NCBI GenBank assembly: GCA_050084515.1
Contig: CM114271.1
Location: 8,060,001-8,124,000, forward strand
Length of the DNA stretch: 64,000 bases
Source: Blasia pusilla
Taxonomy: Eukaryota
Reading direction: 5' to 3'
In this document: one piece after another, positions 3,861 to 62,501 of the stretch
How the letters are laid out: every line of letters starts with the position of its first letter
Position numbering within the stretch: position 1 is the first letter of the stretch
Notes under the pieces: generated by a model
What the model was told of the DNA's origin: nothing
Databases searched by the model: none
The model's input: the letters and a program-made list of their open reading frames with translations, nothing else
Position numbers and translations under genes: made by a program

Positions 3861-5599
3861 GGATGCAACATGAGGTCTTAGATTGTACTTTGAAGTGCCA
3901 TAATGTTCACTATGAGCTTGAACTCTAATCAACTGACGAAAAATGATGAATCTTTTTCACACCTTGGATGGAGAAAGTGATTTATTCCACATTTGTGATT
4001 CCAATGATTTTCAAAAAAAAATCTTTGTGCAAGTTGCAATCCGTCGGATTTAGACGGTTTGCCAAAATATGGAAGAGGAAAAACCAATCTATGGGAGTGA
4101 CTAAGCACGGAGAAAAAAATCAAAAAAAGGTTCAGAATAAAATCTTCCTCTCTTCAACCTAATGGAAACTCTCTTAAAAAAAAGTATCTCTTTGGGTTGA
4201 TGGTAGTTTCCTCTCTCCTCTCTCATCTCTTTCTCTCTTCCTCTCTTCCTCCCCTCTTACCGCGCCTTGCCTCTTCACTGGAGGTTCGCGAGTGAGTATT
4301 GAGCTATGTGTTATCTTTTTCCTTCAACGTTTGATTTATTTTCATACAAGTAGCACCATAGTAAAGAGTATAAGCATATATTTATAGGAAATATGTTGAG
4401 CATTTATTGCCCACAATTGATTTCAGATGAGTGTTGAGTCCAGCATAAGCACCCAACTTCTGAAGGTAGAGAATAAGTGGAGTGAAGATATGGAAGTCAT
4501 CAAGGGTGATCTTGAGCAAAAATTGGAGAGGAACCAACTTCTTTTGGAGAAGAAGATGACCCTGGACCAATCCTTGATAGAGGAGAAGTTGGAGAAGAAC
4601 CAAGAAGAATAGAAAGAGGCCTTCTCCATACTTGTTGAAATGATCAACAAGCTTTCATAGAACAAGAGGCATAAAGTGCATACATCTGGTCCATCTAGGG
4701 GGCATACTATGAGTCAGCAAGAAGGTAAGAGCTCACTCTTGAGCTATTTTGTTTTGAAACATTTGGTGATTAGATTACCTATAAATTCATGACCCTTCCT
4801 TTTAAATCGTATGGCAGGCCTTGCTGGTGTTGACGATACGCATGCAAGTCTTGGAGCAAAGGTTGTGGGTGTTGACAAGGAGGTATCAAGGGAGTTGCAT
4901 GGGCAAAGCCATATCACTTAGGCTAGTAAGTGTTGAGTTCAAAATGTTTCCTTTGGTTGATTAAATGTGCATGATCCTTCGTAGCCTAGATTTATCGTGT
5001 TTCTTATAAACAATGTTTTTGTATGATAGACAACAAGGGAAATGAAGTGAAATCCTCTCCGCCCTATGGTAAATGTAGACCAACAACCCTCTCGGATGTG
5101 GTTCTCTTTCCATTTTTTTGGTTGTCTTTTTTTTTCTATCAATTTTGTACAATGAATGCTTTTTGTTGTGCATGATATATAGGGCTCCATTAGTATAGCT
5201 ATATATTAGTCAGATGGTATCATTTACATTTAACAGAACAAATGAGGTTTTCATTTACTTTAGATTGCTCTCTGATACTATATGCAAATTTGATTGTTGT
5301 GGAGAACCAATCTTCTATAAAAAAAAGACGTGTTGCAAGAGTGCAATCTGAAGCCATTCAAGCAGCAAGTAGCGAACACGAGAGTGATGTCTAGCCAGGG
5401 AGCAACAAGAAACACATTGGGAAGGTATATACACTTAGAAAAAACACATTTCTGGTTGGCATAATAAGAACTTGGTTTATGTGCTATTGTATTATAACTA
5501 AGAGAATAAAAACTAATAATAATTTGGAGTGTTTGTTTAGTAGTTGTCTGTACATTTATCTCCTTAATGACTCATCCTTGTATCTTGGGTTTGTAGATT

Positions 5600-34280: not shown

Positions 34281-36187
34281 TGGGGGCTGGTATTTTGACG
34301 ATAGAGAGGAAGTGAGGAGAGGAAGAGAGGAAGAGAGGAGAGTCTCTCTTTAAGAAAAAAAGGCAGAATCCGCCTCCTCTCTTCAAAACTTTATGACATT
34401 TGTTTATATTTTTTTTGCTTTCGAATGCAAAAAATCTTTAGAAGAGAGTAGCAAGTGGACCAAATTGGGGCATAAACTAACCTTGTTTTTCCAGGCTTGG
34501 AAATAAAAGTAGACATAAGAAGACCACTTCAAACGTGCTTCCATCACTCTCCATGTTAGCCAAATTTTTTGACATTGGTTTGTAAGCCAGCTAGAGAGTA
34601 AGCCAGCCAGAGGGTATATTATTGTTGGAGGACCATGTGGAGAGAATTTTATAAGTACAAACTATTTTCATAACAATGATAGGTGCTAATAAAGACTCGG
34701 ACTATGGTGTCAATAGACTACAGTGCCCTTTAGGGTTTTACTTCTCAATAGATGAGAAGATTATGGGCTCTTGAACTCCCACCCTCATCATGTTGGGTAT
34801 GAAGGGCTCTTGGTGCATCAATGCATGAAAAATCCCATCCAATCAATGCATATCCATCAGATCAGATTCTTTCACAGCAGAACACTTGAAAAATCTGCTC
34901 AAAATACACTCTGACTAGTGGGCGTAGCCGAAGACTTTCACTGATGAAAGATTGGATTTCTTCTCTCTCATGACAGTCTTGGATATTGAGAAAGATGACA
35001 TGTGATTTAGTGAGTTTGGTAGAAAGTGTTGGGTTCCAATATTTCCAACTGACTTTCGTATTCAGTGAAAAGACATTGCAATGTAGACATTTTCAGGAAA
35101 AATGTTGCAGTGAAAAGACATTTTGAGGCAACCTGTTGGTTTCCAACGGTTTGCAACAGTAGAAACGCCTCACTCTAATTTTGGAATTTGATATCTAAAA
35201 TAACATCAAACCATGAGCGGGAAGAGAATTTGGTGCAAAATATCAATTTCCTTTATTTCAAACCGTTTGCAAATCAGTTATTTACCTTTGATTTCCTGAA
35301 CAAGAAAATCTAGTCTATAATCTCTTCAGCCTCGTCATCTACAAAAATGTTCCTAACTCTTGCCGGTTCCTCTACAAGGGACTTTTCTGGGCTATTCAAT
35401 GGCTCCTCTGCACGATTGTAGATTGGAATTGAGAAGGGAGGAGGATCCGAGAGCCTTGTCCCCTTAGGAACGCCATATCGGTCCCATGTGACCTGAGAAA
35501 AGTCCCGACCCTTGCCCTGACAGGTGATTTTGAAGGCTTTGCAAAGGGAAGCCCATCGATAATCAATATTTTCTCCTCCGCTTCAACCAGTACATGCCAA
35601 CTCCAAAATGCTTGAAATCCAAGGCACCTACACTCACTTGTCATCATCTGAGAGCTCCTCCAGAATCACTAATGGCCTTGCCCTCTCGATTTTTTGGATC
35701 ACTCGTAGTGACGATGGCGTCACAACCAATGGCTCTAACATTGGTTTATTAACCCGTGGAGGCAGCTTATTAATGCCTATCAACCTCTCATAATCAGCCT
35801 TTGCCTCGCGGAAAAGTGCAAAGAGGTTGTTCTAAGACTCCAGGCAGAGAATATTACGCCCACTCTGCCAAGTTGCTCTAACACTACTCCCGAAAAGACC
35901 CACCAAATCATCAGGCCTCGAACACAATTCCATCAGGGTCTGCATGAGTGCCGGGGATTTTTCCCTCCCTCAAGGCAATGGCACTCCTTCCTCTAGGAAA
36001 ATTCCCGAGGGTGAATTGTAGAGGCTGTTGAGTGTGAAACCATCGGAGGCAGGATCAACACGATCCTGTATCTCAAAAACGTGGAACTTGTGCTCGGGTC
36101 TGACAAAACAATACACGTAGGAGTATTTGATCTACGAAGGACAAAACCATAGAAATTAGGTAAGAATCGAGGAACAAGTCTTCCATG

Positions 36188-36603
36188 AGCAACCTAACGG
36201 ATTCCGACGGGTTGCAAATGTCAGATGTCACAAATGGAAAGTTTGGTTGCAAAATTGGGCCCATGCAACCCATCAAAATCCGATGGGTTGCCCTCCACCT
36301 CCCAGAATAGGAGTGGATGTGCAACCCGCCGGAATCCGTTAGGTTGCATAGGCCCTGCCAAGGTCCATGGGCAACCCGTTGGAATCCGACAGGTTGCTCG
36401 ACACACCCCAAAATGTGAGTGGTTGTCCAACCCGTCGGACTCCGACGGGTTGCACAACCACTCTCGGGACAATCCACCCCGGGAATTGTCCTATAGGAAG
36501 GAGTGCCACTGCTCCGAGTCCATGTTCAACCCGTTAGAATCGGATGGGTTGCACATAGACCCTAAAATGGACTGTGCAACACATCAGAGTACGACGGATT
36601 GCA
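36188..36603. repeat. Palindrome array in the intron splitting the MTase-like domain (copy 2)
   Basis: About 7 units, e.g. caacccgtcggactccgacgggttgca at ~36428. Confidence 0.9.
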
Positions 36604-38667
36604 GGAAAATTCAAAAAAAAGCAAGAAGATTATGCAGGCATGTTTTTCAGAGTTACCCGGAGTTGGTTTGTAGGCGACCTCACCGGGTAGTTGTTCTTCA
36701 CTGTTTGCCACTTCAACGATCGCTTGACACATTGCAAGTTGAAGAGCTCATCTTTGCTGCCACCAGTCAGAACCAGGAAATATCCCTTATCACTCAGGTA
36801 TGCGTTGGCAAAGGAGACCATCAACGCGATTTGGTCATATGTGAAGGGAATGTTCTAATCCGGGACTGTGTCGCGTGGGTTATCGTCCCATAAACTAAAT
36901 CCCGACGATAGATCTACGATGAGGAGGTCAACTGCAACCTCCTCAAGTACCCCATTGACGGTCCATGGGGCATGGCCGTTTTGGAGAAGCTTTCCTAAGA
37001 TTGTCAGCTTCTCTAGGGCAGGGGTCCTATGCCGAGAACTTCTCCAGTTCTTCCAACATCGAGGTCAGATGCAGCAGGATGGTGATTTTCAAGGCCCCAT
37101 CCTTATGCTTCCCCAAGGATATAGGAGTAAAGATAAAAAATTTGTTCTCTCCCTTGGAGGAACTGGGTGTCTCCCTCTTTCGCTTCTCACGAGTGGGGTG
37201 CCTGCTTGTTGGGGTCTCCATGACCTCGGAATCCGTAGGATTCTGTTTCGAGGCCTCCCGTTGCCGCCCGTCGTGCATGGATGATCCTACCTTGGATGGT
37301 CTTGGCCTCTTCCCCTTGGATTCCAACCCCGCAGTGGACTTGTCTTTTGTTGTTACAGTTTTAGAAAAAATCTCCGCCGCATCAATTGCTTGTGCCTCGA
37401 CATCTCCTTCGAAGTACTCCTCGGTCTTGAAAATGTTTGGGATGTCCTCCTTGCTAGCAATAAGCGCATTATACAAGTCTCGCATTGTTGGATCAGTAAG
37501 TTCTTCAGGGTCATTGGAGTCCAACCAGATTGGATAACTTAATACTTCCCAAGGGCTCATGTCGAGTGCCATCTCCACGTCGCACATGGAGAATCCTTTG
37601 CCATCCGGAGAATCAGCCCATAACTTGAACGTGGCTGTGAACTTCCTCCATGTTCTTGCATTAACACGTGAAGTGAAGAACCTGAACACCATACTATGCG
37701 CAGCTCGATGGCGGGAGGAATCGGGAGCCTGTTTGAGAAGCTCCTTCTTCTTTTTGGCGAAGTCGCATTTCTTCGGGTCGCCAATCTCCTCGTCGACATC
37801 CCCTTGCGGCAAAATCTGGTTCTTGAACATTGTCTTCAACCTAAGGTTCTTCGCCAACTTATCCCGCATGTCATTCAAGCACAATTTGTAGTCCTCTGCC
37901 GATTCAAGGCTAGCCTCCTCCGGAACTGGCTGAATTCTTTGGAGGTCGGCTTGAAGAGACTAAATCATGGATTTTCCTAGCAAGCGTAAGGCATCCTAGA
38001 AGGACCACTCTTGCAACCACTGGGATATTACTGGGTCCAACACCCGCGGGAGATGGTGTGCCAATTTTTTCTCTGCCTCGGTTCCCTCCAGACTGCACTT
38101 CATAAGTCATATCCGCTTGAATTCTAAAATTCTCGAGAGGGAAAACCGGTGAACTCGATCCAAAGACACATTCTCTATCATGCATCCATGGGGATCCTCA
38201 TCCCTCTTTTGCTACCGCTTGATCATGGCCTTCAACTCTTTGTAAAAGTGTGGCCCGAGCTCGAGGTTTAGCACGGCGATGTACCGCTGCATCTTGTTGG
38301 CAAGGTACTTGGTCTCTGCCGATACCGCGGCCTGTATGAAATTTGCTCTCTCAGAAGATGAAACAGTCCCTCTCCACTCCAGCTCCAGTGTCGCGCTGCT
38401 TTTCGTTTCCTTGATTTTCGACCAACAGAGAATTGTAACAGCTGCATCTTGGGAAATGAAGGTGTTGGCCCAAGTCTTCTTTTTGATTTGTGCTCCTTTT
38501 GCGAGCATCTCATCCACCAACTCATGCCCAAGGAATCCTTTGTATTGCGACGGGTGCGTTGTTAGCACCTTCCTCACTCGATCGCTTTCATGGATCCAGT
38601 GATGGGTCACATTTCCTTCCGACACGATGCTACAAGGAACAATGAGAAGTAAGAATATTTCCAACAT

Positions 38668-39716
38668 ACAACCCATCGGTTTTTGATGGGTTGGGAATAG
38701 ATAGCAACAAAAAAATCAAACAACAGATGTGTGAAACCCATCGGAGTCCGACGGGTTGCACCACTAGCTTCCTCGATGCAATCTGTCGGAAACCGACTGG
38801 TTGCATTTGGGTTGTATCGAGTCGAAGGACATATTTTGAAACCCATAAGAGTCCAAAGGGTTTCACAACCTGTCTACACCACGTTCCTCCTTGCAATCCG
38901 TCAGAAACCGACGGGTTGCATCCGGGTTGCGTTTAGCTATTTCCAAATTAAAAGATTACGTCTTTTGCAACCCGTTGGAGTCCAAAGGGTCGCAAAAGAA
39001 GCACCTTTTAGATTCTATAGCTACTCGTTGGAGGTGGAGTCCGACGGGTTTGCTTCTTGTCGGAGTGTGACGGGTTGCTTTTGGTGCAAAATCCTAAGAA
39101 CCTCTATTGAGAAATTTAATCAGCATCCCATCGGAGTCTGACGGGTTGCATATTCTGCTAAGAAGATGTCCCTACTCTTCCAACCTGTTAGAGTCTGACC
39201 GGTTGCAATACTTCAGTGAAGACATCCTGGTTTGATTGGCGATGCAACCCGTTGGAGTCATACGAGTTGCATATTTGGTAGGAAATGTCTTGGTTTGAGT
39301 GGCCTTGCAATCCGTTGGACTGTGACGGGTTGCATACTCTTTAGGGAAGGTCCTGGTTTGCATGGCTTTCCAACCCGTTGGAGATTGACAAGTTGCAAGG
39401 CTACTCAAACCAAGACTCATTCTGTAAAGAATATGCAACCCGCCGGACTTCGACGGGTTTCAAAGCCAATCAAAGCTGCGTTTCTTCCCTGGAGAATATG
39501 CAACCCGTCGGACTCCAATGGGTTGCCAGGCAACTCAAACCAGTTTGTCTTTGCCTCTGGGAAATGAAACTGCAATCTGTCGGAGTCTGACGGATTGCAT
39601 ATTGGGCAGGGAAGTCTTTCTCTTGCAACCCGTCGGATTCCGAAGGGTTGCCGATCTCGTTAACTAGTATCTTTTTTTATTACAAAAGAACCAACCCGTC
39701 GGAGCCCGACGGGTTG
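38668..39716. repeat. Palindrome array in an upstream intron of the MTase-like gene (copy 2)
   Basis: Roughly 17 units at ~55-65 bp spacing, e.g. tgcaacccgtcggattccgaagggttgc at ~39624. Spacers in 39150-39600 are related to each other. Confidence 0.9.
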
Positions 39717-40886
39717 AAGATGTAACAAATTCGGGAAAAAAAATTCAAGATACTTACGTGTTCATTGAGTGCATGGCCATCTCCACCGTGACCATGTGAT
39801 TTGGGTAGGGATGGAAGACCACCGCCCTCTTGCAAAAATGAGTCTCTAGGGAGTTTGGGCGCTCCGCTGGAAACTGCGACCACTTCAAACTGCAACATGA
39901 ATCCATTTGGGCAGTTTGGGCACTCCGTTGCAAACTTTGACATGAATTTGTGGTTGCCATCCTAGATGAAGAAGTACAAGTTTTGCATCCACTTGTACTA
40001 GGTTCGTGCAACTGCCTTCCGAAACTCTATATCCTTTAGCCTCCAAAATGCATCTGAACTCTCCATGTCTTCCTCAGTTACCAAAGCCTGGGTTCCATGC
40101 TCATCATAAGGCTGAACATAGAAAGAAGGGAAGCTATCCATGTTTCAAGTTTTTGCCACTGACTGCTTCAACTTCTCAATGTCTTCCTTGGATTGAATCT
40201 CTCGAACGTATTCTATCGTTCGGAGTCTGAAGAGAGGAATTATCGGGACATTCGGGCCATCCACCACTGCCATTTGCTTCATAACCTGCGCAAATGTCAA
40301 CATTGTCAATTCCAATTTTCATTACAAATGGAAGTAATGGAATTCAAAGAGAACGTTGGTGCTGACAGTTGGTGTTGACGAAATTCAAAGAGAACGTTGC
40401 TGTTGACGGTAAGAGAACGTTGGTGTTGGTCTTGTGCATTGGACCACTCGACCTCATGGAGGACACATCCTCCATTTTGACACTCTCGATGGGTTGCTGG
40501 GAGGGTTCTTCTTCAATGACCATTGCCTTTCCCTTCCTAGATTTTTCCAATTTGGCTTTCCGATAGGCGGAGTCCTGCCTCTTCTTCTCCTTGATCTCAA
40601 ATTCCTTCCATTTCTTCTCCACCTTCTCCGCCTCTGTGAGCATTTTTGCTTCCCTCTTCACCTCTTGCTTCGCAAGTTTCTCCAGAGGTAGCTTTGCCAC
40701 CATTTCCTGCTTCCTCATTTTGGTTTCCCTCTCGTGCTCTTCAATTTCCTTCCGTACATCTGCGGCCGAGTGTTTTGCGCACCAGAAGATGGAGTTCGGC
40801 CAGGCTTGGGAGAGAAGCTCCCAACCTTTTTTGCTTGGGATTTTTTGCGAGTCATCTTGAAAGTAGTCGAGAAAGATGACACGAAG

Positions 40887-45870: not shown

Positions 45871-45949
45871 TCCAAGGTACCGAAAGCAAGTGTTGGATGC
45901 AAGAAAGACCAAGAGGAGGAAGAGGCTCCCACCTACCATTTCAGAGGTG

Positions 45950-47842: not shown

Positions 47843-48851
47843 CGGGGGCTGGTATTCTGACAGGAGAGAGTAAGAGAGGAGAGGAAGAGAGGAAGAGAGG
47901 AGAGTCTCTCTTAAAAAAAAAAGGCCAAATCCGCCTCCTGTCTTCAAAACTTTTTGACATATTTGAAATTTTTGTTTGCTTTAAAATTCAGGAAATCTTT
48001 AGAAGAGAGTATTTCGTGGTCCACATTTGGCCCTAAAAAAACCTCCTCTTTCTGGGCGAGAAAAAAAGGAGACATCATAAGACCACCCTAAACATTTTTC
48101 CATCACTCTCCATGTGAGCCTAAGTTTCTTAACATTCCCTGTCTCGGTCAACAAAAAGCAGTGCCCTTGGTATTTTTGTTGGAGGACCACCCAGATGGGT
48201 ACCTCTCTTTTTGCAGGGATTGTTGCCTGCATCATGGCCTCCCCTAAATTTCCCCATAACCAACTTTCTGTCGGTTATGAATGGTGTCTGCTCAAGACCA
48301 ACTTTCTGAAATGTGAACAAATCAGATCCTAAGGCTGAGAAACCGAGAAGCTGCACCCCTCCCAACCCGTAAGAAAGCTCACCATAAAAGAGGAAAGATT
48401 TTTAGAAGTGATTTTCTTCCACCCTGGACCCACGACGATCTAACGGGTTGGGAATCCGAAATGGCAATCCGACAGGTAGTAGGAATCCTGCACATCTTAG
48501 ACAAGAAAAGAAGCCTACAACTGGTTGGACGAATGAAGGGGAACAAGCCAAAAGTCAAGAAGCCCGCCACAATGCGCCAGAAGTTGGTCTCACCGGGATA
48601 GAGTCCGATCACTCAAGCAGTCAACCTATCGGAATCCGACAGGTTGCCTGGAAATGGTTAAAAAGTTGCAGTTCTTAAAAAGCAAAAAGTCGGAATCATA
48701 CGGGTTGCAGAATTGTAATTCTGAGTAGCTAAAAGAACACAATCCACAAGTCCAAAAACATATTCGAGAAAACTTTTACAAACACCATTATGGGTTGAAA
48801 AAATCTCGTCCTTTATTACCTCTGAAGGAACCTCGGAAATGTACATTGAAC

Positions 48852-51800
48852 CTAGTCTATGATTTCTTCAGCCTCGTCATCTACAAATTTACTCCTAACT
48901 CTCCTCGGTGACAGTACCAAAGGAATGTCCTGGGATTCAAGTGGCTCCTCTGGCCGATTGTAGACGGGGATCGAAAATGTTGGCGAATTTGAGAGCCTTG
49001 GCCCCCCCCCCTAGGTACACCATAACGGTCCCATGTAACCTGTCTCGAGTCCCACCGCCTTCCTCGGCAGTATACCTTGTACGCTCTGCAATATGACACC
49101 CATCCAGTATCAATATCTCCTCCGTCCCCGGTAATTTCATTATGGCAACCGCACAGGTAGAAGGAATCCAACACGTCTGAGAGAAGAAAAGAAGCCTACG
49201 CCTGCCTTTACGAGTTGAGGGGAAGGTGCCAAGGGAAGAAGCCCGCCAGACTGCCTCTTAAGTTGGACCAACAGGAAAGGGTCGATCAGGCAACTGTCGG
49301 AATCAGACGAGTTGCCTGGAGGTGGTAAAAAGGGTCCAGTGGTCAAAAAGCGAAAAGTTGCAAGGAGGAGAAATCCGACGGGTTGCAGTGGTCATAAAGT
49401 GAAAGTTGCAAGCAGGAGAAATCCGACGGGTTGCAAAATAGAAGTCCGTGGAGTACATAGATGATCACATTCGAAAAGACAAAAAATGATCAGCAAACAT
49501 TTACAAGTACCACCATCGATCGAAAAAATATTCTACTTTATATCATCCGAAAAAAGCTCGGAACTGTACATTTGATCTATTCTATGAAATCTTTTGCCTC
49601 ATTATCAAAAAACTCCCTACTCCAAACGCTGCAGTCAAGCTGGGTCGTTGAGTTCTTTGAACTCACTCGTCATCGTCCGAGAGCTCTTGCAAAATCACTT
49701 TCGGCCTTGCCCTCCCGATTTTGGGAATCGTTGGAAGTGACGATGGAGTCACTACCAAGGGTGGCTCTGGAACCGGAGCTCTCGGCTTCGGTGGAGAGTT
49801 GTACGCCCCAACGAGCCTTTCGTATTCTGCCTTTGCCTCCTTGCAAAGGTCAAACAGTTCCTGCCTTCCCTCGAGGCAGAGAATGTTCCTGCCACTCTGC
49901 CAGGCGCCTTTGATACTTGCCCCTGAAAGTTCCACTAAGTCGAACACCAAGTCACCCGGCCTTGAGCACAGCTCGATGAGCGTTTGCATCAGGGCTGGCG
50001 ACTTTTCCCTTCCTCCCAGAAGTGGGGTACTGTCTTCAATGTAAATTCCCGGGGGGGAATTGTACAAACTATCTAAGCTGTACCCATCTGAGCATGGATT
50101 CACAGGATCCTGGATCTTGAACACCTGGAAATTGTGCTCGGGCGGAACGAAGCAGTAGACGTAGGAGTGGTCCATCTGTAAATTAGCACGTTGGAAACAA
50201 TGTCAGAAACTAAAGAAGTCGCCTTGAGAACATTTTCAATTACTGACTTTGGATCAACATGTCGGAGTCCGACGGGTTGTTTTGTCCCGGACCAACCCGT
50301 CGGGCTCCGTTGTTTTTGTCCGTGAGCAACCCGTCGGAAGGCGACGGGTTGCTGGCCTAGAGCAGACCATGCTCGCCTGAGAGCAACCCGTCGCTATCAG
50401 ACGGGTTGCATCCAAAAACCAAAATCAATTGGGAAAAACCAAAAGCAACTGCAACTCGTCGGGTTCCGACGAGTTACAGGTACACCGCGGTTTTCCGTGT
50501 ATGTGGGAAAGATGCAACCCGTCGAAAACCGATGGGTTGCTCTCAGCCGAGCATGGGCTGCTCTAAGCCAGCAACCCGTCGCCTTCCGACGGTTTGCTCA
50601 CGGACAAAAAAAACCCAGATTGACTCTCATTATACACATCATTAAAATATAATTGAAATTATAGTTCAGGAATTGAGCCTTACCCGAATCTGACTCGTCG
50701 CGGATCGGAGTGGGTACTCGTTTTTAATGATCCACGATTGTGTCCTCCTCCACTTTAGCGACCTCTTGACGCACTGGAGGTTGAAGAGCTCGTCCTCGCT
50801 CCCTCGAGTCAACACCAAGAAGCAGCCCCTATCACTCAGATAGGCGTCTACAAAGGAGAACAAAAGTGCAATCTGGTCATAAGAGAGCGGCACATTCCAC
50901 TCAGGTACCTCGTCCGACGGATTCTCGCCCCAAAGTCGCAACCCCGAGGGCAGATCGGCGATCAAGAGATCCACCGCAACCTCTTCGACCACTCCATTCA
51001 CCGTCCAGGCAGCGTGCCCGTTTCTTTGGAGCTTCCGTCCCAGCGTTGTCAATTTTTCGATGGCTGGTGTCGATGCTTGAGAACTGAAGCTCTTCAACTC
51101 ATCCAGTAAAGGAGTGAACTGAAGGAGGACGCTTGTCCGGGTGGTTGTTTGTCTGTGTCTTCCCAAGGATGATGGGTTGTATTCTCCTTGGGACAACCCG
51201 GGCACCTCTCGCTTCCGCTTCTCCCTAGCGTGGGGACGGCTTGTCGGGGTTTCTATGACCTCACATTCTGGTGGCGTTTTTTTTGCCGAGGACCTGGTCC
51301 AACCCTCTCTCCCCGCTCGTCCGGACGATTCCGCCTCTGGCCTTGAATCTTCAGCCTCTCTTTGGGAAGACTCGGACTCTGAATTTTTCCCTCCCCTTGC
51401 CTTGCCTTTGAGACCCGCTGTGGATTTGTCTTTGGCTGTGCGGACCTTGGAAGCCAACTCAGCTGTCTCGTGGGCCTGCTCTTCTGCATCTCCTCCGAAG
51501 AAGTCTTCAATTTGGACAAAATTGGGGATGTCGTCTTGTCCCGAGGCCACCTTTGCATCATGAAGCACTCGTAAGTCCTTATCCCGCGATGTCTTCAGGG
51601 TCGTTGAAGTCGAGCCAAATGGGGCAATTCTCCACCTCCCAATCGGACATGTCGCCCCATCTCCACGTCGTACATGGAGAATGTCTCGCATCCGGCGGCA
51701 AAGCCCACAATTTCAAGGCTACCGGTAATTTTCCCCACGCACTGCGTTCTTACACCGGACGAGGTACAAGACCATCCGTTGGGCGCTTTTAGTCGAACAG

Positions 51801-52699
51801 AATCGCCGTCTGCTCCTCAGAGATCTCGCTTCTTCTTCGCTTGATCCCATTTGTTCCCCTCTACTTCTTTGTCAAGCTCTTCGAGGGAGGACGCAAACCT
51901 TGAACATGGTCTTGAATCCTGGGTTTTGGTTGGCTTGTCCCGGATGTCGTCGAGCCAAACCTCGAAATCTCCAGAACTTTCAAGGTTTGCTTCGGCGAAT
52001 GGGCTCTAATCTTCGAGCTCGCATGGTAGACCGCCCAAAGACGGACTTCCCGATTACCAACGCGCCCCGTAACGACCATTCGCGTAGCCAATGCGAGATC
52101 ACTGGATCGGACACACCCAGAGGATGGTGTACCGCCCTCTTCTGGGCCTCTGAGCCCTCGAGACTGATTTTCATCAATCGTATCCTCCTAAACTCGCTTA
52201 TCCCGGACAACGCAAACCGATGCACGCAATCCAGCGACACTTTCTCCCCAATCCGACCATGCAGATCTTCATCCCTCTTCCGCTGGCGCTTGATAATCGC
52301 CTTCAGCTCCTTGTAGAACTCCGGACCAAGTTCGGGGTTGAGAATGCTGATGTATGGCTACATCTTGCTCGCTGTGTATTTCCTTGCAGTAGATACTGTA
52401 GCGTGGATGAATTTGGCGCGCTCAGACGCAGATACCTTCTCCCTCCGCTCCAGCTCGGTCTGGCGCTTTTTTCTTGCGGCTGTATCTTCGACCTGCAAAG
52501 TATGGTTATGGCTGCATCTTGAGAAATAAACTTATTTGCCCAAGTTTTCTTCTTAATCTGAGCACCCTTTGCAAGCATCTGATTGACGAGGGCATCGCCC
52601 AAGAACCCCCTGTACTCTCCCGGGTGCGTCGTAAGCACCTTCCTCACCCGATCGCAATCCTGGATCCAGTGGTGGGTGACATTCCCCTCCGATACAATC
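48852..52699 (-). pseudogene. Cargo gene with beta-class N6A/N4C DNA methyltransferase-like domain, copy 3 (MTase part open across intron 50176-50683; upstream frameshifts)
   Basis: VDLLIADLPSG (motif IV-like, 50942-50974), AYLSDRGCFLV, spliced SQIR|MDHSYVY, then EKSPALMQTLIELCSRPGDLVFDLVELSGASIKGAWQSGRNILCLE (motif X/I-like). Last exon ends RVRSKFVDDEAEEIID* (48852-48854). Confidence 0.72.
50258..50598. repeat. Palindrome array in the MTase-domain intron (copy 3)
   Basis: About 7 units, e.g. gcaacccgtcggaaggcgacgggttgc at ~50326. Confidence 0.9.
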
Positions 52700-52715
52700 C
52701 TGCACATCCAAACTC

Positions 52716-53757
52716 AACCCGTCAGGAAATTACATGGGTTCCTGCAACCCGTCGGACTCCGACGGGTCGTCACAGCTCAAGGTCGGATTTTAGCAACGAG
52801 CTAAATGATGCAACCCGTCGGAGTCCGACGGATTGCATTCAGATTTGCTAATGCCTAGTAAGAAAACCGTCGGAGTCCGACGGGTTGCTCGACAGGCCGC
52901 CTTGTGAGGATGTTTTTTGAAGAATGCAACTCGTCGGACTCTGACGAGTTGCTCGAGTGACTGCAGGTTTATAAGGTTTTTTCCCCAAAGCAACCCGTCG
53001 AAGTCCGACGGGTTGCTTGCCTCGAAGCTGTTTTTCATCAAGGCCAACGTCGGAGTCCGACGTGTTGATTTCGGCCAAAAATAGTTTCGGGTTGATTTCA
53101 ACTGACCGTTGGGTCCCGTCGTCCTTTTGACGGCGACGTGCCGGATGTTACGGAAGTCCGGACGTGAAAAATGGCAACCCGTCGGAGTCCGACAGGTTGC
53201 GCGGCTCCGCCATCCTGCGTACATCGCCACGTGCGCGAGCAACCCGTCGGAGACCGACGGGTTGAGCGCCTCCGTCATATTCGGAAAAGAACGCGAGGTA
53301 CCCGCGCAACCCGTCGGAGACCGACATGTTGCGCGCCTCCGCCGTGTTTGGGACGGGAACGGGACGTATCTTGGGCAATCCGTCGGAGACCGTTGGGTTG
53401 CACGCTTCCCTCATCAAGGGTTAAGAACGAGGGCTTCCCGTGCAAGTCGTCGGAGTCTGGCTGGTTGCACCACAAGGCGAGGCCCTTGCGCAACCCGTTG
53501 GAGGGCGACGGGTTGCATGCCTCGCCATCTTTGGGCTAAAAGGCGAGGCACCCGCGGAACTCGTCGGACTCAGACGGTTTGCACGCCTCCGGCATCTTCG
53601 GGCAAGAAGGAGCGGTATCCGAGCAACTCGTCGGAGAGCAACGGGTTGCTCGCTTCGACAATGTTTAGCAGAAGTGTGCAACCCGTCTGATGCCGACGGG
53701 TTGCAGGCTTTGATTAGCTTCGGGAAATTTTTGAGTTACCAGGACTCCGACGGGTTC
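52716..53757. repeat. Intergenic palindrome array between the divergent MTase-like and transposase genes (~16 units, ~50-70 bp period)
   Basis: tgcaacccgtcggactccgacggg (~52743), tgcaacccgtcggagtccgacggattgca (~52809), gcaacccgtcggagtccgacaggttgc (~53174) and others. Confidence 0.92.
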
Positions 53758-53965
53758 CAAGTGTGATGCGCAACCCTCTGCTTCCCAAATCCAGTAACAT
53801 ATTGCAACAGAATTGAATGTGTTACAGAATTGGATCCATTGTGTCAGACAATGTCACCCACCAAATTCATCTTGTCAGTAAAAATCTGTCAGGAGTATCT
53901 GTTTCCTATTCACTATAAATTAAATATTCTCATTCTCAGTCTCCTCCCATTGGAATCTTCTTGGA

Positions 53966-56900
53966 ATGGATAATTATGTTAAGCTCACTTGTGGCAGTCA
54001 TCTGGCGGCCCTTCCTCAATCGGAAATCATTCGACCCCAAGCTCGTGAGTCTTTCATAGTAGTGGATGAAAATTTTCTGTCTGTTCGATTTCTTCTCCAA
54101 ATTGGAACCATCTTTGTATCCAAAGATGTTAGGGTGGACGGTACGGAAGACAAAATAGGTGAGATGGTCTAGCTAGTGACCTCAGACCTTAAAGTATGGA
54201 ATCTCCTACCTCTACCAAATGGTCAATACAGAGTTTACGGCCTGCCCCTGAATTCGTATGTTTCCCAAGTAGACGGTCTAGAATTTCCTAGTGCTCCGAG
54301 CTCTACGTTTGCAACTCCAAGCTCGCAGACCGGCCGACTCCAACTGCGCGACGTAACAATGTTGTTTTTCCTGAAGAGATTCCGGATGTTATCAACCTCA
54401 GTGGATCTGTCGGACACCAATCGGGCCCTCTGTCCGCCTACTCGTTCCTCTTGCGAGTATCAGGCAATAGTTTGCTTTCGTCTCTGCCCTTGAAAATGTT
54501 CAAGCGCATTCTTGTCGACGAGTTTCCGCCCATGTACGATGGTAATTGCATTTTTGAGTTGCCTCCACTTGCTGCTCCTGCTCAAAAGAAGGATGGAGGG
54601 CGCCTGAAGGGTATGGACAAAAAGTCTGATTGTCATCGATGGTGCAGGCTTCAACGGACCAGTGCTTCAATTCCAGATGGTGCTTAGATTGTCTCCCGCC
54701 GCCAATGCGTGGGAGCCTTGGAGTGTAGAAGTCCAGCATGCCTGTATCTAGAGCGCAACGGGCGAGTCAATACGTCGCAATTCCCTCCCAAGAATGCAGA
54801 AACTCCATACGAGGTGAGTGCCACCATACTGCCGGGAGGCCATCGATGTCCTCATTGTCAGGCATCGCCCTTCTGCATTGTCCACGACTTGGGCTCCACG
54901 TCAGAGTATACAAGGCTGGCTGTCCATGTTGGCTCCCACACTCATCCTGTGATCGATGCAATTCAAAGACACATCAAGGAGGATGTGGCGAAGAAAGTAG
55001 CCGAGGTCTACAGAAACTCTCCGGGTTCAAAGCCCGGAGTGATCAAGCTCACAACGGCATCACAAATTTGTGAACAATTGCTTGGAATCCCAAGACAGGG
55101 CGAGATCACGGCAGTTGGGGAGAAACAACTCTGGGAAAATCTCGCATTTCTCGCTGATCCTGAATGCTTTCGGAATTTGCTGCGTCAGATACGAGTTATG
55201 GATGGAAAGACGGCCGAAATGGATGCCATCGCCAGAATCAAGGCCAACTCCAGATTTCCATTCATTCGAGATGGCGTTCATGGGCCAAGGAGGCGAGGAT
55301 CCAGGGCCTATGTCTTCAAAATGTCAACCACAGGTCCGTCGAGTGGCCTCGATCTTATAGATCGAATGAGGGAAGGGGAAGATCTTTACGGGAGCTGGGT
55401 CAGCTTTGATATTTGCTACAGAGTGCCGAACGGATGGTTGACGATGGGTGCTCACGTTTATGACCATGTGGAGAAGGGACTCAAAACTATATTTGTGTGT
55501 GAAGTAAAGGCAGAAGACGTTGGCGGTTTGAAGATGTGTTGGTTACTCTTATTGGAGGTGGTGAAGGAAAACAAAAGGCCACCGAAATTTATGGGTTCAT
55601 GGCGCATACAATGCACAACCTGGGTGGATTGCTATCCGGGAAGTGTTTTGGGGTGAGAGGTTCAACCGGAGAGGAAAGGTCGGATGCTTTCCATTGGCAA
55701 ATACACGACCGGTACACCAAATCTTGCATCAAGGAGAATAAGAGGACAGAGCATGTCACTCTACTCCAACGCGCAAGGACAAAAAACCTTGAAGCGAGCC
55801 ATGGAATTCAGGAAGAACTTCATGGGTGGTGGAGGAAGCATGCGATTGAGGGGAAGTACAAAGAGTTGTGCTCTTGGTTGAGTTGGTGGACTGTACGTAT
55901 GAGACAATGGGGAAACTTCATGCGGCAGGTGAGTTCACTATTTTGTCTTGTCAAGCTCACGCTGAGAATTATTTGTAAAGTTGTAGCTCAGGGTGAGAAG
56001 CGTGGGAATTATATGGATTTCAAACCCAAGAAACCAAGCAAGCTGTCGGATGCGACGGGTTGCCCGAGTGTGCAACCCGACGGAAACCGACGGGTTGCAT
56101 CCAGATGTTTGGTGCAACCCGAGTGTGCAACCCGTGGGGCCCCGACGGGTCACAGAGTTGTTCATGGGATGCCTCGGCCTTGCAACCTGTCAGGTTGTGA
56201 CGGGTTGTAGTAGGTGGGTTGAAGGTTACAACACGTCGGGACCCGACGGGTCGCAGGGTCGTTCATGGGATGCCTCGGGCCTGCAACCCGTCTGGTTCCG
56301 ACAGGTCGCTTATTTCTTTGACTCCTAAGTTATTTTCGTTCCCTTCTAACATTGCCGTCGTTGCAGGGATTGAACGTTCATGAAAATGCCCTCTTCCCCA
56401 ACACAAGTGGAGCAGAAAGTGTTCATTCCTCTTGGAGGTCGTCACAAGCATGCCAACGAATTTCACTTGTGGAGGCATGCCAACAAGACCAGGCAAGAGC
56501 AATGCTACAGTCTGCAGCATCCCACATCTTTCTCACAAAAGGCATAACAAAAGGAAAAGGGCCGTCGATCTACGAGCTCTATGTCGTAATTTGTGAGATC
56601 CGGGTGATGAAAAATGTATGTCGAAGCGTTCAACTGGTGCGTAGCTAGAACTCCACTCGATCAAGACGTACACATAGGTGGGGATATTCGTGGGCGGGTT
56701 TCAAGATGTCCCATACAGATGGTGGTAGAGCAGTCTGAACGAGACTCGTGGAGACCAGATAAGTATCTTAACTTCAGGCAGGTGAAGAGGCAGCATCGAG
56801 GAACGAATCTGGTGATTGGTTTGGATGAGGAAATTACACCACCCAGGTTTTAGGGGACCCCGGACCCATCCCAAATCCGTGATGGAGTTACTTCTCCAAA

Positions 56901-57866
56901 ATCAGTGAATGTTTTATTTCAAAAGCCCTCCGTTGGTGGAAGTTTGCGACATCCTGTCACTGGGGTGGTTCAACAATATGGGATTCTGGTAATGGAGGTG
57001 GATTGCAACCTGAAACCGTGGCATATATCTCGGAGCAACCCAGGACGTGGACCCACCTGCAGGGCAGGATCTTATGGCATTAGGAGAGCATGCGGCACTT
57101 TCCTAAATAAGAACTGTACAAGGACTGGACGACCTCTGCCTGGGTTTTGGGGACTCAAAACCTTTGATCGTTTCACGAGGATCGGGGATCAATTGAAGTA
57201 CTTCTTCTGCCCAAATGAATCTTGCGCTTTCCGGAAGTCTTATCTGGCTGCCATTGGAGCTCCCGGGAATACCCCCAAGATTTGGCCCATCGCCGCAGGC
57301 ACAAACTGCACTCAAGACGAAGTGGACAATCTTACAAGTGCCGGTTTCAGACTCGTAGACGGGGGAAGTTCTGAGCATGTTCGCATTACAGAGACCTTTG
57401 CATTTTGTATTGAACCCAAGATTGATGTCAACATGTACCCGGAGAAGGTGTATGATCTCAATCCATTATTTCTATTTGAGTCTAGAAATGGGGTGAAGAG
57501 AAACAGAATGTGCAGGCCAACGGTGGAGAGAGCAAAGCGAATTGCATTGCAGCTCGGGAGGCAAAAATGGAGATCATCGCCACGAAAGATGTCTTGAGTG
57601 GCAATGGAATAGGAAGGATGTATTGGGTCAGGAACAACACTGTAAATTCAAGTGTCACAGGGGTGTATGTGGTGCACATCTGTTGCTTTCCCACATGTTC
57701 ATGTGATGACTTTGTCCAAAGAGAGACAAGTGGCAAAAGGTATTTCCCTTGTAAGCACATGTACTATGTGTTGCTGGTAGTTTTAAGAGAGTCGGAGGTA
57801 GGAGTAGGAATCCACCAACCAGTGTCCCTCAAAGAAGTTCGAAGTATTTTAAACAAACCACTTTGA
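53966..57866 (+). pseudogene. MULE/Mutator-type transposase (Zn-binding N-terminal domain, DDE, SWIM), copy 3; intron 55929-56366
   Basis: ATG MDNYVKLTCGSH conserved with copy 2. CVGALECRSPAC...CPHC...HVGSHTHP, SFDICYRV, FMA(D), DAFHW, NTSGAESVH and SWIM CSCDDF...PCKHMYYV. Many 1-nt frameshifts and a few stops. Confidence 0.85.
56050..56310. repeat. Palindrome array in the transposase intron (copy 3)
   Basis: About 6 units, e.g. tgcaacccgacggaaaccgacgggttgca at ~56071. Confidence 0.88.
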
Positions 57867-58264
57867 GGATGCAAAGGAGGTTTTAGATTGTACTTTTATT
57901 TTTTTCTCAACCTTCACTTCGAGCTTGAACTCGATTCAGCCCCGGGAAAATGGTAGATTATTTCGAGACCTTGGATGGAAAAAGTGATTGGTTCCACACT
58001 TATGATTCCACAGATTTTTCAGTTTTCTAAATTTTGTGCAATTTGCAACTCGTCGGACTCAGAGGGGTTGCCAAAATATGGAAGAGGAAAAAAAAACTGT
58101 GGGATCTGCTTAATATATGAACAAAAAAGTGCAAAAAATTTCAAACAAAAACTTTCCTCTCTTCAACCCAACGGAAACTCTCTTCAAAAAAGAGTATCTA
58201 TTTCGGTTGACCCTAGTTTCCTCTCTCCTCTCTCCTCTCTTCCTCTCTTCCTCTCCTCTTACCG

Positions 58265-58475: not shown

Positions 58476-58524
58476 GCTAGAGTTCGGATGTTCCGCTTGG
58501 CGCTCGTTTGGTTATGAGGGTCAT

Positions 58525-61190
58525 TGCTCTTGCCTAGTCTTGTTGGCATGCCTCAACGAGAGATATTTTTTGACATGTTTGTGATGATCTCTAGGAGGAA
58601 TGGACATTCTCAGCTCCACTTGTGTTGGGGCAAAGGGCATTTTTGTGAATGTTCAGTCCCTACACTAGAAAAATTATCAATTGATGGAGGGAACGCTAGG
58701 TGTTCAACACTTACAAAATGTCAAAATCCAACAAGTTGCAAGTTCTTTAAATCTTAAGTCCTTGTTGGATGTCAACATTCATATTGCAACCCATCGGAAT
58801 CGGATGGATTGCAAGCAAGCTACAAGAATAGGGAACAAAATCTAACTACAACTCGTCGGATTCCGATGGGATGCAAGAAGAATTTAGTTGAAAACAAGAA
58901 GCAACCCGTCAATAAGAAGTATGAAGAACATAAGAACTTGCAACCAGTCAGATTGCGAGTAATCTACTTGAGAATACTCTGCTGCAACACGTCAAAATCC
59001 AACGAGTTGCAAGCCGTCGGATTCAAACGAGTTGGAAGATTAAATTTTCAAGATAAGAAGCAACCTGTCGGATTCTGACGGGTTGCAGCCTAAACTTTTT
59101 CGCAAAAAAAGTTACTTGCAATCCGTCAGATTCGTACAAGTTGCAACCTCACACTTGGAGAAAATGTTGAACTCACCTACCGCATAAAGTTTCCCCATTG
59201 CCTCATACGGATGGTCCACCAACTGAGCCAGGAACACAACTCTTTGTATTTCCCCTCAATTGCATGCGTGATGGTTACTCTTACTGTAGGTGGTGAAGGA
59301 AAACAAAAGACCTCCTCCTGAAATATATGGCTTCATGGTGGACAATGCCCAACTGGGATGGATTGTTATCACGGAAGTGTTCTGGGGTGGGGGAAGTTCA
59401 ACTAGAAAGGGAAAGATCCGATGCCTTCTATTGGCAATAGTCTGTGACTCGCTTCACAAAATTATGCATCAAGGAGACTAAGAGAACAGAGCATGTTGCT
59501 CTACTTCAACTTTGCAAGAATAGCAAAACCTTGAAACAAGCCATGGAGTGCCAAGAAGAGCTTCATATGTGGTGGATGACATCTTCAAGCTGCCAATATC
59601 TTCCGCTTTCACCTCACAGACAAAATTGGTTTTGAGATCCTTCTCCACATGGTCGTAAACGTGTGCACCCATGGTCAACCATCCATTTAACACCGTGTAG
59701 CAAATATCAAAGTTAACCTAGCTCCCAAATAGATCTTCTCCCTCCCTCATTCTATAAGTAAGATCTAGGCCGCTAGACGGTCCTGTAGTAGACATTTTGA
59801 AGACATAAGCTCTAGATCCCTTGCCTCCTTGGCCCATCAACTGCCATCTTTGAATGAATGGAAACCATGGGTTGGTCTTGATCTTGGCAATGGCATCCAT
59901 CTCTGCAGTCTTTCCATCAAGTATTTGTATTTGACGCAATAAGTTCCTGAAGCATTCAGGATCAGCCAAGAATGCCAGATTTTCCCATAGTTGTTTCTTC
60001 TCAACTAGTGTGATCTCCCCTTGGCCAAGGATATCCAGCAGTTGTTCACAAATTTATGATGCAGTTGTCAATTTGATCACTCTTGGCTTTTGTCTTGGAG
60101 AGTTTTTGTACACCTCATCCACTTTCTTTGCCACAACCTCCTTGATGTGTCTCTGAATTACACCGGTGACAGGATGAGTGGGAGACCCAACATGAATTGC
60201 CAGCCTAGTGTACTCGGACGTAGAATTATAGTCGTGTACTATGAAAAGAATATAATCTTGACACACTCTTACACAGGAAGGGGAGGCTTGACAATGAGGA
60301 CATTGATGGCCACCCGGCGGTATAGTTGTACCGACGGCGTAAGGATTTTTTGCATTTTTGGGGGGGAATTATGACGTATTCACCACTCCCTTCCACTTGA
60401 GGAAGGGGCATCTTGGACTTATACACTCTAAGGCTCCAACACATTGGTGACGAGACACAAGTCAAGGACCACTTGGGATTGAAGCGCTCGTCCACTGCAG
60501 TCTGCACCATCGGTGATAGTCCGATTTTCGGTCCATACCCTTCAAGCGCCCTCCATCTTTCTTTTGAGCAGGACCGACAAGTGGAGGCAGCTCAAAAATT
60601 CAGTTTCCATCAGATGTTATTGGCAGCTCATCCACGAGAATGTGCTTGAACAGTTTCAAGGGAAGAGATGAAAGCAAAGAATTCCCCGAAATTTGAAGCA
60701 GGATGGAGAAATAAAATTTTGGGTCTGACATGTTTCCAACAGATCCTATGAGATCAACGATACTTGAAATGTCTCCACCTTCAACCGCATTGTTACGAGC
60801 TTGTGAGTTTGGAGTCTATACTGGATCGGCCGAAGCAACCATGCTAAACGTGGAGCTTGGAGCACTGGAAGGTTTTGGACTGTCTTCATGAGTCGGAGTG
60901 GGCCTCAGAGATAGGCCATAAACTCTCAATTATCCATTGGAGTAGGATAAGAGGTTCCACACTTTGGAGCCTCCAATCTCTGATTGAACTATTTCACCAA
61001 TGACGTCATCCGTTCCATCAACCTTGACATCCTTGGATACAAAATTGGTTCCAATCTGGAGCAGAAATCGAAGTGAAAGGAGATGTTCTTCAAAAATTAC
61101 ATGAGTGTCACTAGGTTGGGCTCAAATTATCTCCGATTGAGGAAGGGCCGCTAGATGGCTGCCACATGTGAGCTTCACATAATTGTCCAT
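58525..61190 (-). pseudogene. MULE transposase copy 2, 3'-truncated, with internal micro-inversion 59268-59579
   Basis: MDNYVKLTCGSH start, ADPECFRNLLRQI, NGWLTMGAHVYDHVEK and NTSGAENVHSS; truncated after DxARAM at 58525. Confidence 0.85.
58720..59150. repeat. Palindrome array in the transposase intron (copy 2)
   Basis: About 8 degenerate units, e.g. gcaacctgtcggattctgacgggttgca at ~59060. Confidence 0.85.
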
Positions 61191-61419
61191 TTGGGTTAGA
61201 TCATAGATATGATTTTCCCAGATAGGCGAATAAGAATGAGAATAAGAATGAGAATGTTGAATTTATAGTGAACAGTGTCCGTTTATACTCTAACAGAATA
61301 TCTCTAACATGGACTTGGTAGTTAGGTTGAACCATCGCCAGCTGACTGGACCTGCCAAAGAAGAAGATTCATACATCCTTCTTGATGACATGTGGGGAAA
61401 GATCTACCAAGGATCCTTG

Positions 61420-62180
61420 AACTCGTCAGAATCCGACGGATTGAAGAGCCAAAGTTAAAGAGCCCATGACAACTCTTCTAGTAAAAAAAAGTTGAACTCG
61501 TAGGGTTGATTGTGGGGCAACTGCAACCCATCTCAGTCCAACGAGTTGGAAGGTAGATTGTAGGGGAACTATAACCTGTTGGAGTCCTACGGGTTCTAAT
61601 TTGACGCAAGATGGGCAGGGAAGTCGGATTCGGTCGGTCCTAGAAGGCCATAGGGAGAATGTTATGGTGCAACCCGTCGGAGTCCAACGGGTTGGAAACC
61701 CTCATGTAGGATGTTGACGGTACGACCCATCGGAGTCCAACAGGTTGAATTGACGTGAGTTTGGCTGAGACTGAATTTCATCCTACTGCAAGTCGTTGGA
61801 TTCCATCTAGTCATTTTGCAATCTATCGGAGTCCAACGGAATGAACGGTCCAAATGTCTTCAGGTCGGATTTTCGGGCTTCGTGGGAGCTGCAAATGTAA
61901 TGGTGTAAGCCGTCAAAATTCAACGGGTTGCACAGATTGGGCAGGATGGGCTCTCTGCAACTCGTTGGAGTCCGACCGTTTGCACGAGTTGGGCGGGATG
62001 GGCCCCGTGCAACCCGTTGGACTACAACGGCTTGCACAAGTTAGGCAGGTTGGGCCCTGTGCGACCCTTCGCAATCCAAAGGTTTGCACAAGCTAGGCAA
62101 GATGGACGGGTTGCATGGGCAATCAAGGGCATAACGCCCAAGCACTGCTATCGCAACCCATCGGGCTCTGACGGGTTGTA
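61420..62180. repeat. Intergenic palindrome array (copy 2)
   Basis: About 12 degenerate units, e.g. tgcaacccgtcggagtccaacgggttgg at ~61668. Confidence 0.88.
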
Positions 62181-62501
62181 ACTAGCCCACGTGGAACAAG
62201 CACCGTAACGGTCCACCGTCACACCAATGGTCAAGTGAAATAACATCGAAAGTATATAAGGACCATTTCCAAGGCTTTTCAGTTTTCCATTCTACGGTTT
62301 TCAGCGCTGCTTTGAACTGCCTTGTTCACACAATTACCAAAATTGCCTTTCTAATTCCTCAGACATTTTGACGGTTGGTCGTTGTCTCTTTAATTGGGGC
62401 CCAAAAAGGTTGGTGATGACGGTTTGGATTAAATCAATTTCGTTCAAAGGTAACCACGATTCAAGACTCAAGCACTCCCGCAGCGTTTGATCAAAGCTTC
62501 G

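Follow-up and report, generated by a model that had tools for sequence, protein, structure and literature searches.

Only a small number of transposons are known whose proteins read or modify the DNA of the element itself. As far as the accessible text of the two sources goes, the published examples that we found are the VANDAL elements of eudicots with their VANC proteins (PMC5735166) and the proposed PAG cassette of red algae (10.1101/2025.02.11.637652). In VANDAL21, tandem repeats of the VANC21 motif occupy the introns of both VANB and VANC, as well as the sequence upstream of VANA (Hosaka et al. 2017, PMC5735166). In red algae, according to a 2025 preprint on Bostrychia moritziana, Plavaka, Mutator and Zisupton elements carry a PAG accessory cassette with a PF01555 methylase-SET protein (PAG2) and a ParB-like/2OG protein (PAG3); tandem inverted-repeat arrays adjoin PAG3, and the authors propose that the element binds and modifies its own DNA (10.1101/2025.02.11.637652). 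Here we analyze a putative Mutator-like element (MULE) of 10.4 kb in a stretch of 64,000 nt from Blasia pusilla (GenBank assembly GCA_050084515.1, contig CM114271.1, positions 8,060,001 to 8,124,000 of the forward strand), which we refer to as the window. The element contains a methylase-like gene on the minus strand (hereafter the cargo), a transposase-like gene with a candidate SWIM finger on the plus strand, and a 29-bp palindrome in 30 copies.

The window is eukaryotic and repeat-rich, and harbors several diverged copies of one DNA-transposon family. We delimited the whole element, the third copy (47844..58264), by the break-points of its similarity to copies 2 and 1: similarity to copy 2 begins at the left end, 47844 (corresponding to 34282), and similarity to copy 1 ends at the right end, 58264 (corresponding to 4262). 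Copy 1 (1..4262, plus strand) is cut by the start of the window, is also broken, and consists of the transposase half and the right end; its positions 2-4262 match 54517-58264 of the element. The left half of copy 2 (34282..39720, plus strand) includes the left end, a cargo pseudogene with at least three stops and a four-codon deletion in motif I, and palindrome arrays, and matches 47844-52704 over positions 34282-38634. An inverted, truncated piece of the family (58522..62181, minus strand), with a palindrome array and the 5' half of the transposase gene, matches 53965-56504 over positions 58522-61191 and is probably the other half of copy 2. A local inversion of 312 bp (59268-59579) is located in the transposase coding region of this piece. 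The first-pass annotation of this DNA had proposed a layout of left end, methyltransferase-like gene (minus), palindrome array, transposase (plus) and right end over ~10.4 kb, with copy 1 matching the transposase half, and both proposals are borne out. At the termini, a GA-rich arm of 30 nt (47875..47904, plus strand) is 100% complementary to a right arm of 30 nt (58230..58259, minus strand). The 25-mer core of this inverted repeat has five matches in the window, only at family ends, and none in 100 shuffles. Inverted repeats of the kind expected for the termini of MULEs are present, but they are offset: 31 nt separate the left arm from its end of the element, and 5 nt the right arm. The left end is 81% identical to copy 2 across 297 nt.

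The palindrome has the form T-GCAACCCGTCGGA-N-TCCGACGGGTTGC-A, with a single free central base. When at most three mismatches over the 20 specified bases were allowed, we found 50 matches in the window and none in 100 shuffles; at most five mismatches over the 22 arm positions gave 76 instances, distributed over copy 1 (11), the left half of copy 2 (23), the element (30) and the region of the inverted piece, 58265-62300 (12). No instance was found in the ~39.8 kb of non-family sequence in the window (4263-34281, 39801-47843 and 62301-64000), so that all 76 lie in family copies, as the first-pass annotation had claimed. The positions outside the selection criteria (0, 12, 13, 15, 16 and 28) are conserved too, and for this reason we take the unit to be 29 bp with a free centre; the information content drops to about zero right outside it. 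Three of the four copy groups share one majority consensus, from which the fourth departs at a single fixed position.

None of the 30 palindromes of the element falls in coding sequence. Instead, 14 occupy the spacer that separates the genes; of the others, six belong to the cargo intron, five to the transposase intron and four to the zone 3' of the cargo, and one lies in the right subterminal zone. Introns, intergenic spacer and subterminal zones had been named as the palindrome sites in the earlier annotation; the first two stand as described, and the third applies as well, although the subterminal palindromes are few and degenerate. The array between the divergent genes (52744..53706) holds its 14 palindromes at a period of ~52-70 bp. 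Single palindromes are found at matching distances from the ends in different copies, namely, at the right at 58045..58073, ~220 bp from the end, with a counterpart at 4036 in copy 1, and at the left at 48621, with a counterpart at 35128 in copy 2. The arrays behave as dynamic tandem repeats, some units of which are inverted; they expand, contract and invert, and they fill the same three compartments in different copies.

To estimate selection on the two genes, we counted substitutions by the Nei-Gojobori method with wrong-frame controls. For the cargo, comparison of the element with copy 2 over 453 codons gave a proportion of nonsynonymous differences (pN) of 0.183 and a proportion of synonymous differences (pS) of 0.807, which is saturated, while the wrong-frame controls gave pS values of 0.26 and 0.19 and pN values of 0.33 and 0.37. 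The first-pass annotation had named the absence of purifying selection on the cargo beforehand as a finding that would speak against its proposal; such selection is present. For the transposase, comparison of the element with copy 1 over 793 codons gave nonsynonymous (dN) and synonymous (dS) rates of 0.115 and 0.56, a ratio of 0.205, against ratios of 1.18 and 1.05 in the wrong frames. Both proteins were thus under purifying selection for most of the time separating the copies. The left end and the palindrome consensus are also better preserved than silent sites. Our strongest argument is that, because of this purifying selection and this conservation above the level of silent sites, the cargo and the palindromes are likely to be functional parts of the family. 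In each of the two copies with a cargo half, the cargo gene lies at the same point and in the same orientation, which supports the view that it belongs to the family. Chance capture of the Pack-MULE style was considered as its origin, and was rejected in view of the selection signal and the conserved position.

What kind of function the palindrome could have is partly indicated by its pattern of change. Of 98 cases with a change in one arm, 19 show a compensating change in the partner arm, and in 62 the partner retains the consensus; with the roles of the arms exchanged, the corresponding counts are 17 and 69 of 101. As C>T or G>A changes account for 147 of the 334 palindrome substitutions, coincident CpG decay can mimic even this level of compensation. 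A conserved hairpin was rejected as the palindrome's function given the weak compensation (19/98; 17/101) and the lack in copy 2 of the hairpin found in the cargo intron. A dyad bound by protein would fit the data better than a conserved nucleic-acid structure, and the 29-bp palindrome is probably a selected cis-element and a putative recognition site of the element itself. The hairpin in question is formed by ~300 nt of the cargo intron (50176-50683, minus strand), is near-perfect (-291.7 kcal/mol, z = -22) and could yield hairpin small RNAs; the 104-nt inverted repeat underlying it is absent from the intron of copy 2.

Could the arrays be a functionless self-propagating minisatellite or a fold-back by-product, and the cargo an old gene capture without a role? 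Such an origin would account for the expansion, contraction and inversion of the arrays, for a long intron hairpin that is specific to the element copy, and for arm changes that are more often left uncompensated (62/98) than compensated (19/98). However, the consensus is identical in lineages whose silent sites are saturated, its conservation ends exactly at 29 bp, and arrays occupy the same three compartments across copies; in addition, the cargo shows strong purifying selection and a conserved intron, and it has multi-copy relatives elsewhere. We therefore consider this explanation highly improbable.

We searched for relatives of the cargo in a scan of 1.84 billion representative proteins, which returned six hits at E ≤0.001, one of them an unrelated repeat protein. 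The named relatives, all from bryophytes, are two near-identical paralogues of Ceratodon purpureus (758 and 810 amino acids) and a Riccia sorocarpa protein of 349 amino acids, whose UniRef name is that of an N-4/N-6 methylase-domain protein. A profile search added 44 hits, mostly short open reading frames (ORFs) on long contigs from one source (ENA), so that the cargo family is multi-copy in that source. No homologue was found with cargo exon A among proteins of near length. In a metagenome scan, 48 loci match the motif I stretch, 47 of them only within cargo residues 53-130 and the remaining one (L039) within residues 20-102; the palindrome core was found in none of these 48 loci.

The Pfam domain N6_N4_Mtase (PF01555) matches all six homologues scanned (E 7.6e-6 to 0.063), the best bit score being 26.5 vs a gathering cut-off of 26.7, and the Riccia protein spans positions 2-212 of the 221 of the profile. 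In the window itself, cargo exon B matches the domain at E 4.5e-4 and 20.7 bits, which does not reach the gathering score for membership, and it matches M.RsrI at E 0.019. A profile of the cargo family matches M1.HpyAVI (5.7e-7) and CcrM (0.0026). We also ran Foldseek on an AlphaFold 2 (AF2) model of the Riccia homologue. Among the matches listed (30 rows, through rank 42), all are relatives of beta-class DNA amino-methyltransferases, including M1.HpyAVI, MboIIA, CcrM, TTHA0409, PvuII, BceJIV, RsrI, the rotifer N4CMT and a Type III Mod subunit, with MTA1 in the last two places; the best E-value among them is 7.8e-7, at template-modelling (TM) scores of 0.3-0.5 for a low-confidence model. The Pfam span and the Foldseek matches agree in placing motif IV before motif I in a beta-class fold. 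Judged by profile and model, the assignment of the C-terminal ~300 residues of the cargo to the fold of bacterial beta-class N6A/N4C DNA methyltransferases holds, and this part of the first-pass annotation, which had called the cargo a bacterial-type amino-methyltransferase, stands. The signatures of motifs IV and I that go with such an enzyme do not.

Motif IV, canonically (D/N/S)PP(Y/F/W), reads DLPS in the element, DLSS in copy 2, DAPE in Ceratodon and DPPT in Riccia, and an aromatic fourth residue is present in none of the four covering sequences. In motif I (FxGxG), DPFMGSGTT of M1.HpyAVI aligns with the family consensus DLSASTGAS, and with DLVELSGAS in the window, so that the first glycine is replaced across the cargo family. 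Motif IV varies between members, and the rest of the methylase-like domain is under purifying selection. Since motif IV is non-canonical and the S-adenosylmethionine (SAM) loop is altered, methylating activity is doubtful and a role in reading DNA more likely; most likely, the cargo is a DNA-binding or reader pseudo-enzyme rather than a conventional methylase. Marking of the palindromes by the cargo, as the first-pass annotation had suggested, is accordingly unlikely in the usual chemical sense, with a motif IV of DLPS and a motif I that lacks its first glycine. Taken as a whole, the interpretation given in the first-pass annotation receives partial support.

The beta-class enzymes CcrM and M.HinfI recognize GANTC, a sequence found at the centre of 32 of the 76 palindromes. 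This is a lead only; it may be a coincidence, with the centre merely continuing the palindrome. It bears on the idea that the cargo is an active, non-canonical amino-methyltransferase that marks family DNA with N6-methyladenine (6mA) or N4-methylcytosine (4mC) inside the palindrome, for example at the central GANTC or at CG, against silencing of the element by host 5-methylcytosine. The beta-class fold and the SAM-loop region are still recognizable, the Riccia relative retains DPP-T, and the arrays are CpG-rich, the observed/expected ratio being 1.32 in the intergenic palindrome array and 0.84 in the element vs 0.43-0.44 in the non-family sequence of the window. Beta-class enzymes are, moreover, used by Marchantia for 4mC at CG, according to the accessible part of the report (10.1101/2021.02.12.428880). 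On the other hand, the motif IV sequences of the window and Ceratodon (DLPS, DLSS and DAPE), the replaced FxGxG glycine and the variability of motif IV within a domain otherwise kept by purifying selection speak against catalysis, and as GA..TC at the centre continues the palindrome, the prior for GANTC is ~1 in 16. We regard an active methylase as unlikely.

The cargo gene consists of two exons and a more decayed upstream region, all on the minus strand. The introns of both genes of the element were inferred from GT..AG sites, phase and conservation. Exon B (49663..50175), whose frame is open, encodes the C-terminal half of the methylase-like domain with motif I (DLVELSGAS), followed by a proline-rich tail and an acidic end, and is 64% identical to the pseudogene of copy 2. 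The intron (50176..50683; GT..AG, phase 0), which carries the six palindromes, has the same position and phase in copy 2. The open part of exon A (50684..51691) encodes the N-terminal half of the domain with motif IV, preceded by a disordered basic/acidic stretch with REKRKRE. Both REKRKRE (51182-51230) and the acidic C-terminal tail SDDDE (49663-49690) are conserved between the copies, and the acidic tail is also present in the Ceratodon and Riccia relatives. Further upstream, an N-terminal remnant (51692..52704) is conserved with copy 2 by tblastx and contains at least two frame changes and one stop. As this ~1 kb (to 52704) is conserved at the protein level, we estimate that the ancestral cargo protein had ~850 residues; it is intact in neither copy. 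A Pfam scan of the N-terminal region gave no match. Mrr-like rows returned for this region by the language-model Atlas had a score of 0.80, which is the chance level, and were not taken as evidence.

The zone 3' of the cargo (48621..49436) contains the four palindromes mentioned above, which are degenerate or half sites, and a tandem duplication of ~680 bp (48461-48690 / 49142-49358). Within the duplication, 48849-49124 matches 35307-35580 of copy 2 at 72% nucleotide identity and, in one frame, 56% amino acid identity. No Pfam match was found for this conserved ORF, and the stretch may be a third small ORF or a cis-element.

The transposase-like coding region extends over ~53965-57866 (plus strand). 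Its 5' exon or exons (53965..55928) encode a Cys/His-rich N-terminal part and the portion of the core with the first two candidate acidic residues, and are interrupted by a stop near 54685 as well as frame changes at 55590-55700. The intron (55929..56366; GT..AG, phase 0) holds five palindromes, and the 3' part (56367..57866) contains further stops and the candidate SWIM finger (57687-57779), which matches PF04434 at E 0.0046 and 16.9 bits, below the cut-off of 19.6 bits, with a visible CxC..CxH pattern; a C-terminal SWIM finger is frequent among MULEs but not present in all of them. In the language-model Atlas, the clusters nearest to the core of copy 1 are MULE and ZSWIM1-3 RNaseH-like families (PF10551 / PF21056), with a score of 0.95 that shuffled proteins reach about once in 100. 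The surroundings of FDICYRV, GFMADNAQ and NTSGAESVHS are, we take it, those of a MULE D..D..E triad, and the N-terminal CxxxxC...HxH presumably resembles a WRKY-GCM1-type finger. We assign the element to the Mutator-like group with moderate confidence.

This gene product is itself a candidate for binding the palindromes, in synapsis, in transcriptional self-activation or in both, in which case the methylase-like protein would do something else, for example, play a general role in chromatin or DNA modification. The N-terminal part of the transposase is Cys/His-rich; at either end, independent copies have one palindrome at a conserved distance; and the consensus is frozen across saturated divergence, as would be expected of a transposase and its site. 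Nevertheless, 25 of the 30 palindromes of the element are located in gene-proximal internal arrays, intergenic and intronic, and not at the termini, the actual termini bear a different, GA-rich repeat, and WRKY-GCM1-type DNA-binding domains of transposases have short sites, which a 29-bp dyad exceeds in length. In favor of this view, the AtMu1 transposase is reported, in the accessible part of a 2026 preprint, to activate its cognate copies by itself and with sequence specificity (10.64898/2026.08.24.746577). Binding by the transposase, the main alternative, is possible, but we give it less credence than the explanation set out next.

Like the VANC sites, the arrays are placed in the intron of the cargo itself and upstream of it, and beta-class enzymes of the cargo's fold work as dimers on short symmetric sites. 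For these two reasons, the cargo is the better candidate reader. The explanation that we lean towards is that of a two-gene family composed of a transposase with a C-terminal SWIM finger and a large, divergently transcribed accessory protein, both of which would have been kept by selection while the lineages of the family diverged until their silent sites were saturated. Having lost the catalytic tetrapeptide, the accessory protein would act as a DNA-binding or reader pseudo-enzyme. The palindrome, whose arrays occupy the upstream region common to both genes and an intron in either gene, and which also occurs singly close to the two ends, would be bound as a dyad by a dimeric protein that the element encodes, and this binding may allow the family to recognize copies that belong to it, whether for self-regulation or for anti-silencing, much as VANDAL and VANC do. 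We consider this whole picture, in which the methylase-derived cargo is the more plausible reader, somewhat more probable than not. The locus in the window would accordingly be a dead copy of an old cut-and-paste transposon family of the Mutator-like kind with two genes, a view that we favor to the same limited degree.

Several observations weigh against this explanation. No target-site duplication, expected to be 8-11 bp for a MULE, is visible, and the two flanks differ. No Pfam MULE domain (PF10551) was found in the core of the element or of copy 1 at E up to 10, searches among proteins of greater length and among PDB sequences found no homologue of the transposase core, and the assignment to the superfamily is based on language-model features, the SWIM finger and the candidate motifs. 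All family copies in the window are disrupted by stops or frameshifts, and only two of them inform on whether the cargo travels with the transposase. The structural comparison was made with the Riccia homologue, 30% identical to the cargo, and not with the window's own spliced cargo, and the confidence of that model is low, with a predicted local distance difference test (pLDDT) score of 52.7 and TM-scores of 0.3-0.5. Finally, the palindrome consensus is unchanged between lineages, unlike the fast co-evolving VANC motifs, and would suit a conserved transposase site at least equally well. For the transposase core, the AF2 model (pLDDT 38.7) was unusable.

As for the genomic setting, the left flank of the element is a reverse-transcriptase ORF (RVT_1, E 5.7e-14) that the element interrupts. 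This ORF, of the long terminal repeat (LTR)-retrotransposon type (46779-47860), is cut at the left end of the element, and the right flank does not resume it. Given that the interrupted gene is not resumed at the right, a later rearrangement may have removed the target-site duplication. A pair of 1.5-kb sequences (40887-42424 / 62502-63991) lies in inverted orientation at 94% identity and, together with the inverted family piece (58522-62181), suggests a large inversion or nested insertions round the element. Elsewhere, 44247-45249 and 14012-15047 form a direct 1-kb match at 72% identity and are probably two copies of another retroelement family. Rfam returned no matches.

A more far-reaching reading is that a bryophyte-type transposon family has long kept a beta-class methylase fold and turned it into a non-catalytic, dimeric and sequence-specific reader of its own 29-bp palindromes, a system for anti-silencing or self-recognition resembling VANC but evolved independently from an enzyme of the restriction-modification type. 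We offer this only tentatively and think it rather unlikely in its full form. The cargo might also be related to the lineage behind the Marchantia 4mC enzymes. If the explanation that we lean towards is true, the family would represent a second independent case, with a methylase-derived protein and apparently in bryophytes, and would suggest that self-recognition modules are a recurrent strategy of transposons. It would also provide a long, easily assayed binding site for studying how the DNA-methylase fold is reused as a reader, and might bear on the origin of plant N4/N6 methylase-like genes. Its value is limited by the facts that the copies here are dead and that binding of the palindrome is a prediction.

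Comparison with known systems places the element between several of them. Like the bacterial beta-class enzymes (M1.HpyAVI, M.MboIIA, CcrM, M.PvuII and M.RsrI), the bdelloid N4CMT and the Marchantia MpDN4MT1, the cargo has the beta-class fold and the permuted order, motif IV before motif I, and like the latter two, it is a bacterial-type domain in a eukaryote. Unlike all of these, it has lost (D/N/S)PP(Y/F/W), its SAM loop is altered, and the domain lies inside a transposon-borne protein of ~850 residues with an extra N-terminal region. A mobile element that keeps a DNA-methylase-type gene is also seen in the retrotransposons with C5 cytosine methyltransferases (de Mendoza et al. 2018), although these, as presented in the accessible text, carry the DNMT family and belong to another transposon class, with no mention of cognate motif arrays (PMC5890265).

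The first-pass annotation knew of no description of this combination, which is too strong a claim in the light of the red-algal elements with a PF01555 accessory protein and inverted-repeat arrays (10.1101/2025.02.11.637652). In our literature search, no account of such an element from a land plant turned up, and this is the sole basis for calling it new there. Compared by description only, and on the accessible part of the source, the red-algal PAG elements are likewise eukaryotic DNA transposons with a PF01555 N6/N4 methylase accessory gene and with internal tandem inverted-repeat arrays proposed as self-binding sites, and most of their copies are degenerate. However, they reside in red-algal hosts and are 17-19 kb long vs 10.4 kb here, and their PAG2 fuses PF01555 to SET, whereas Pfam gave no SET, ParB or 2OG matches among the scanned ORFs of the Blasia element and its copies. 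Their arrays adjoin PAG3 (ParB-like with a 2OG oxygenase), a type of gene that is absent from the Blasia element.

The closest resemblance in layout is to VANDAL21 and VANDAL6 of Arabidopsis, which, as far as the accessible text describes them, are also Mutator-type elements with an accessory protein besides the transposase and with a short family-enriched motif in dynamic tandem repeats, in introns of their own genes and upstream of the transposase. The VANDAL parallel drawn by the first-pass annotation is therefore sustained with respect to the placement of the arrays in introns and upstream regions, as for the VANC motifs in VANDAL21 (PMC5735166). In the same source, VANC is not a methylase-fold protein, as the cargo is predicted to be; the VANC motifs are of 8-9 bp in one orientation, whereas the Blasia motif is a 29-bp palindrome; and they diverge fast between subfamilies, whereas the Blasia consensus is frozen. 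The Blasia element, unlike VANDAL, has a terminal-proximal inverted repeat, and binding and hypomethylation have been shown for VANC, whereas the Blasia element is known here from sequence alone. In our assessment, the element resembles VANDAL/VANC in the way its layout would work, but is not a member of that group, given its other accessory fold and its long palindrome.

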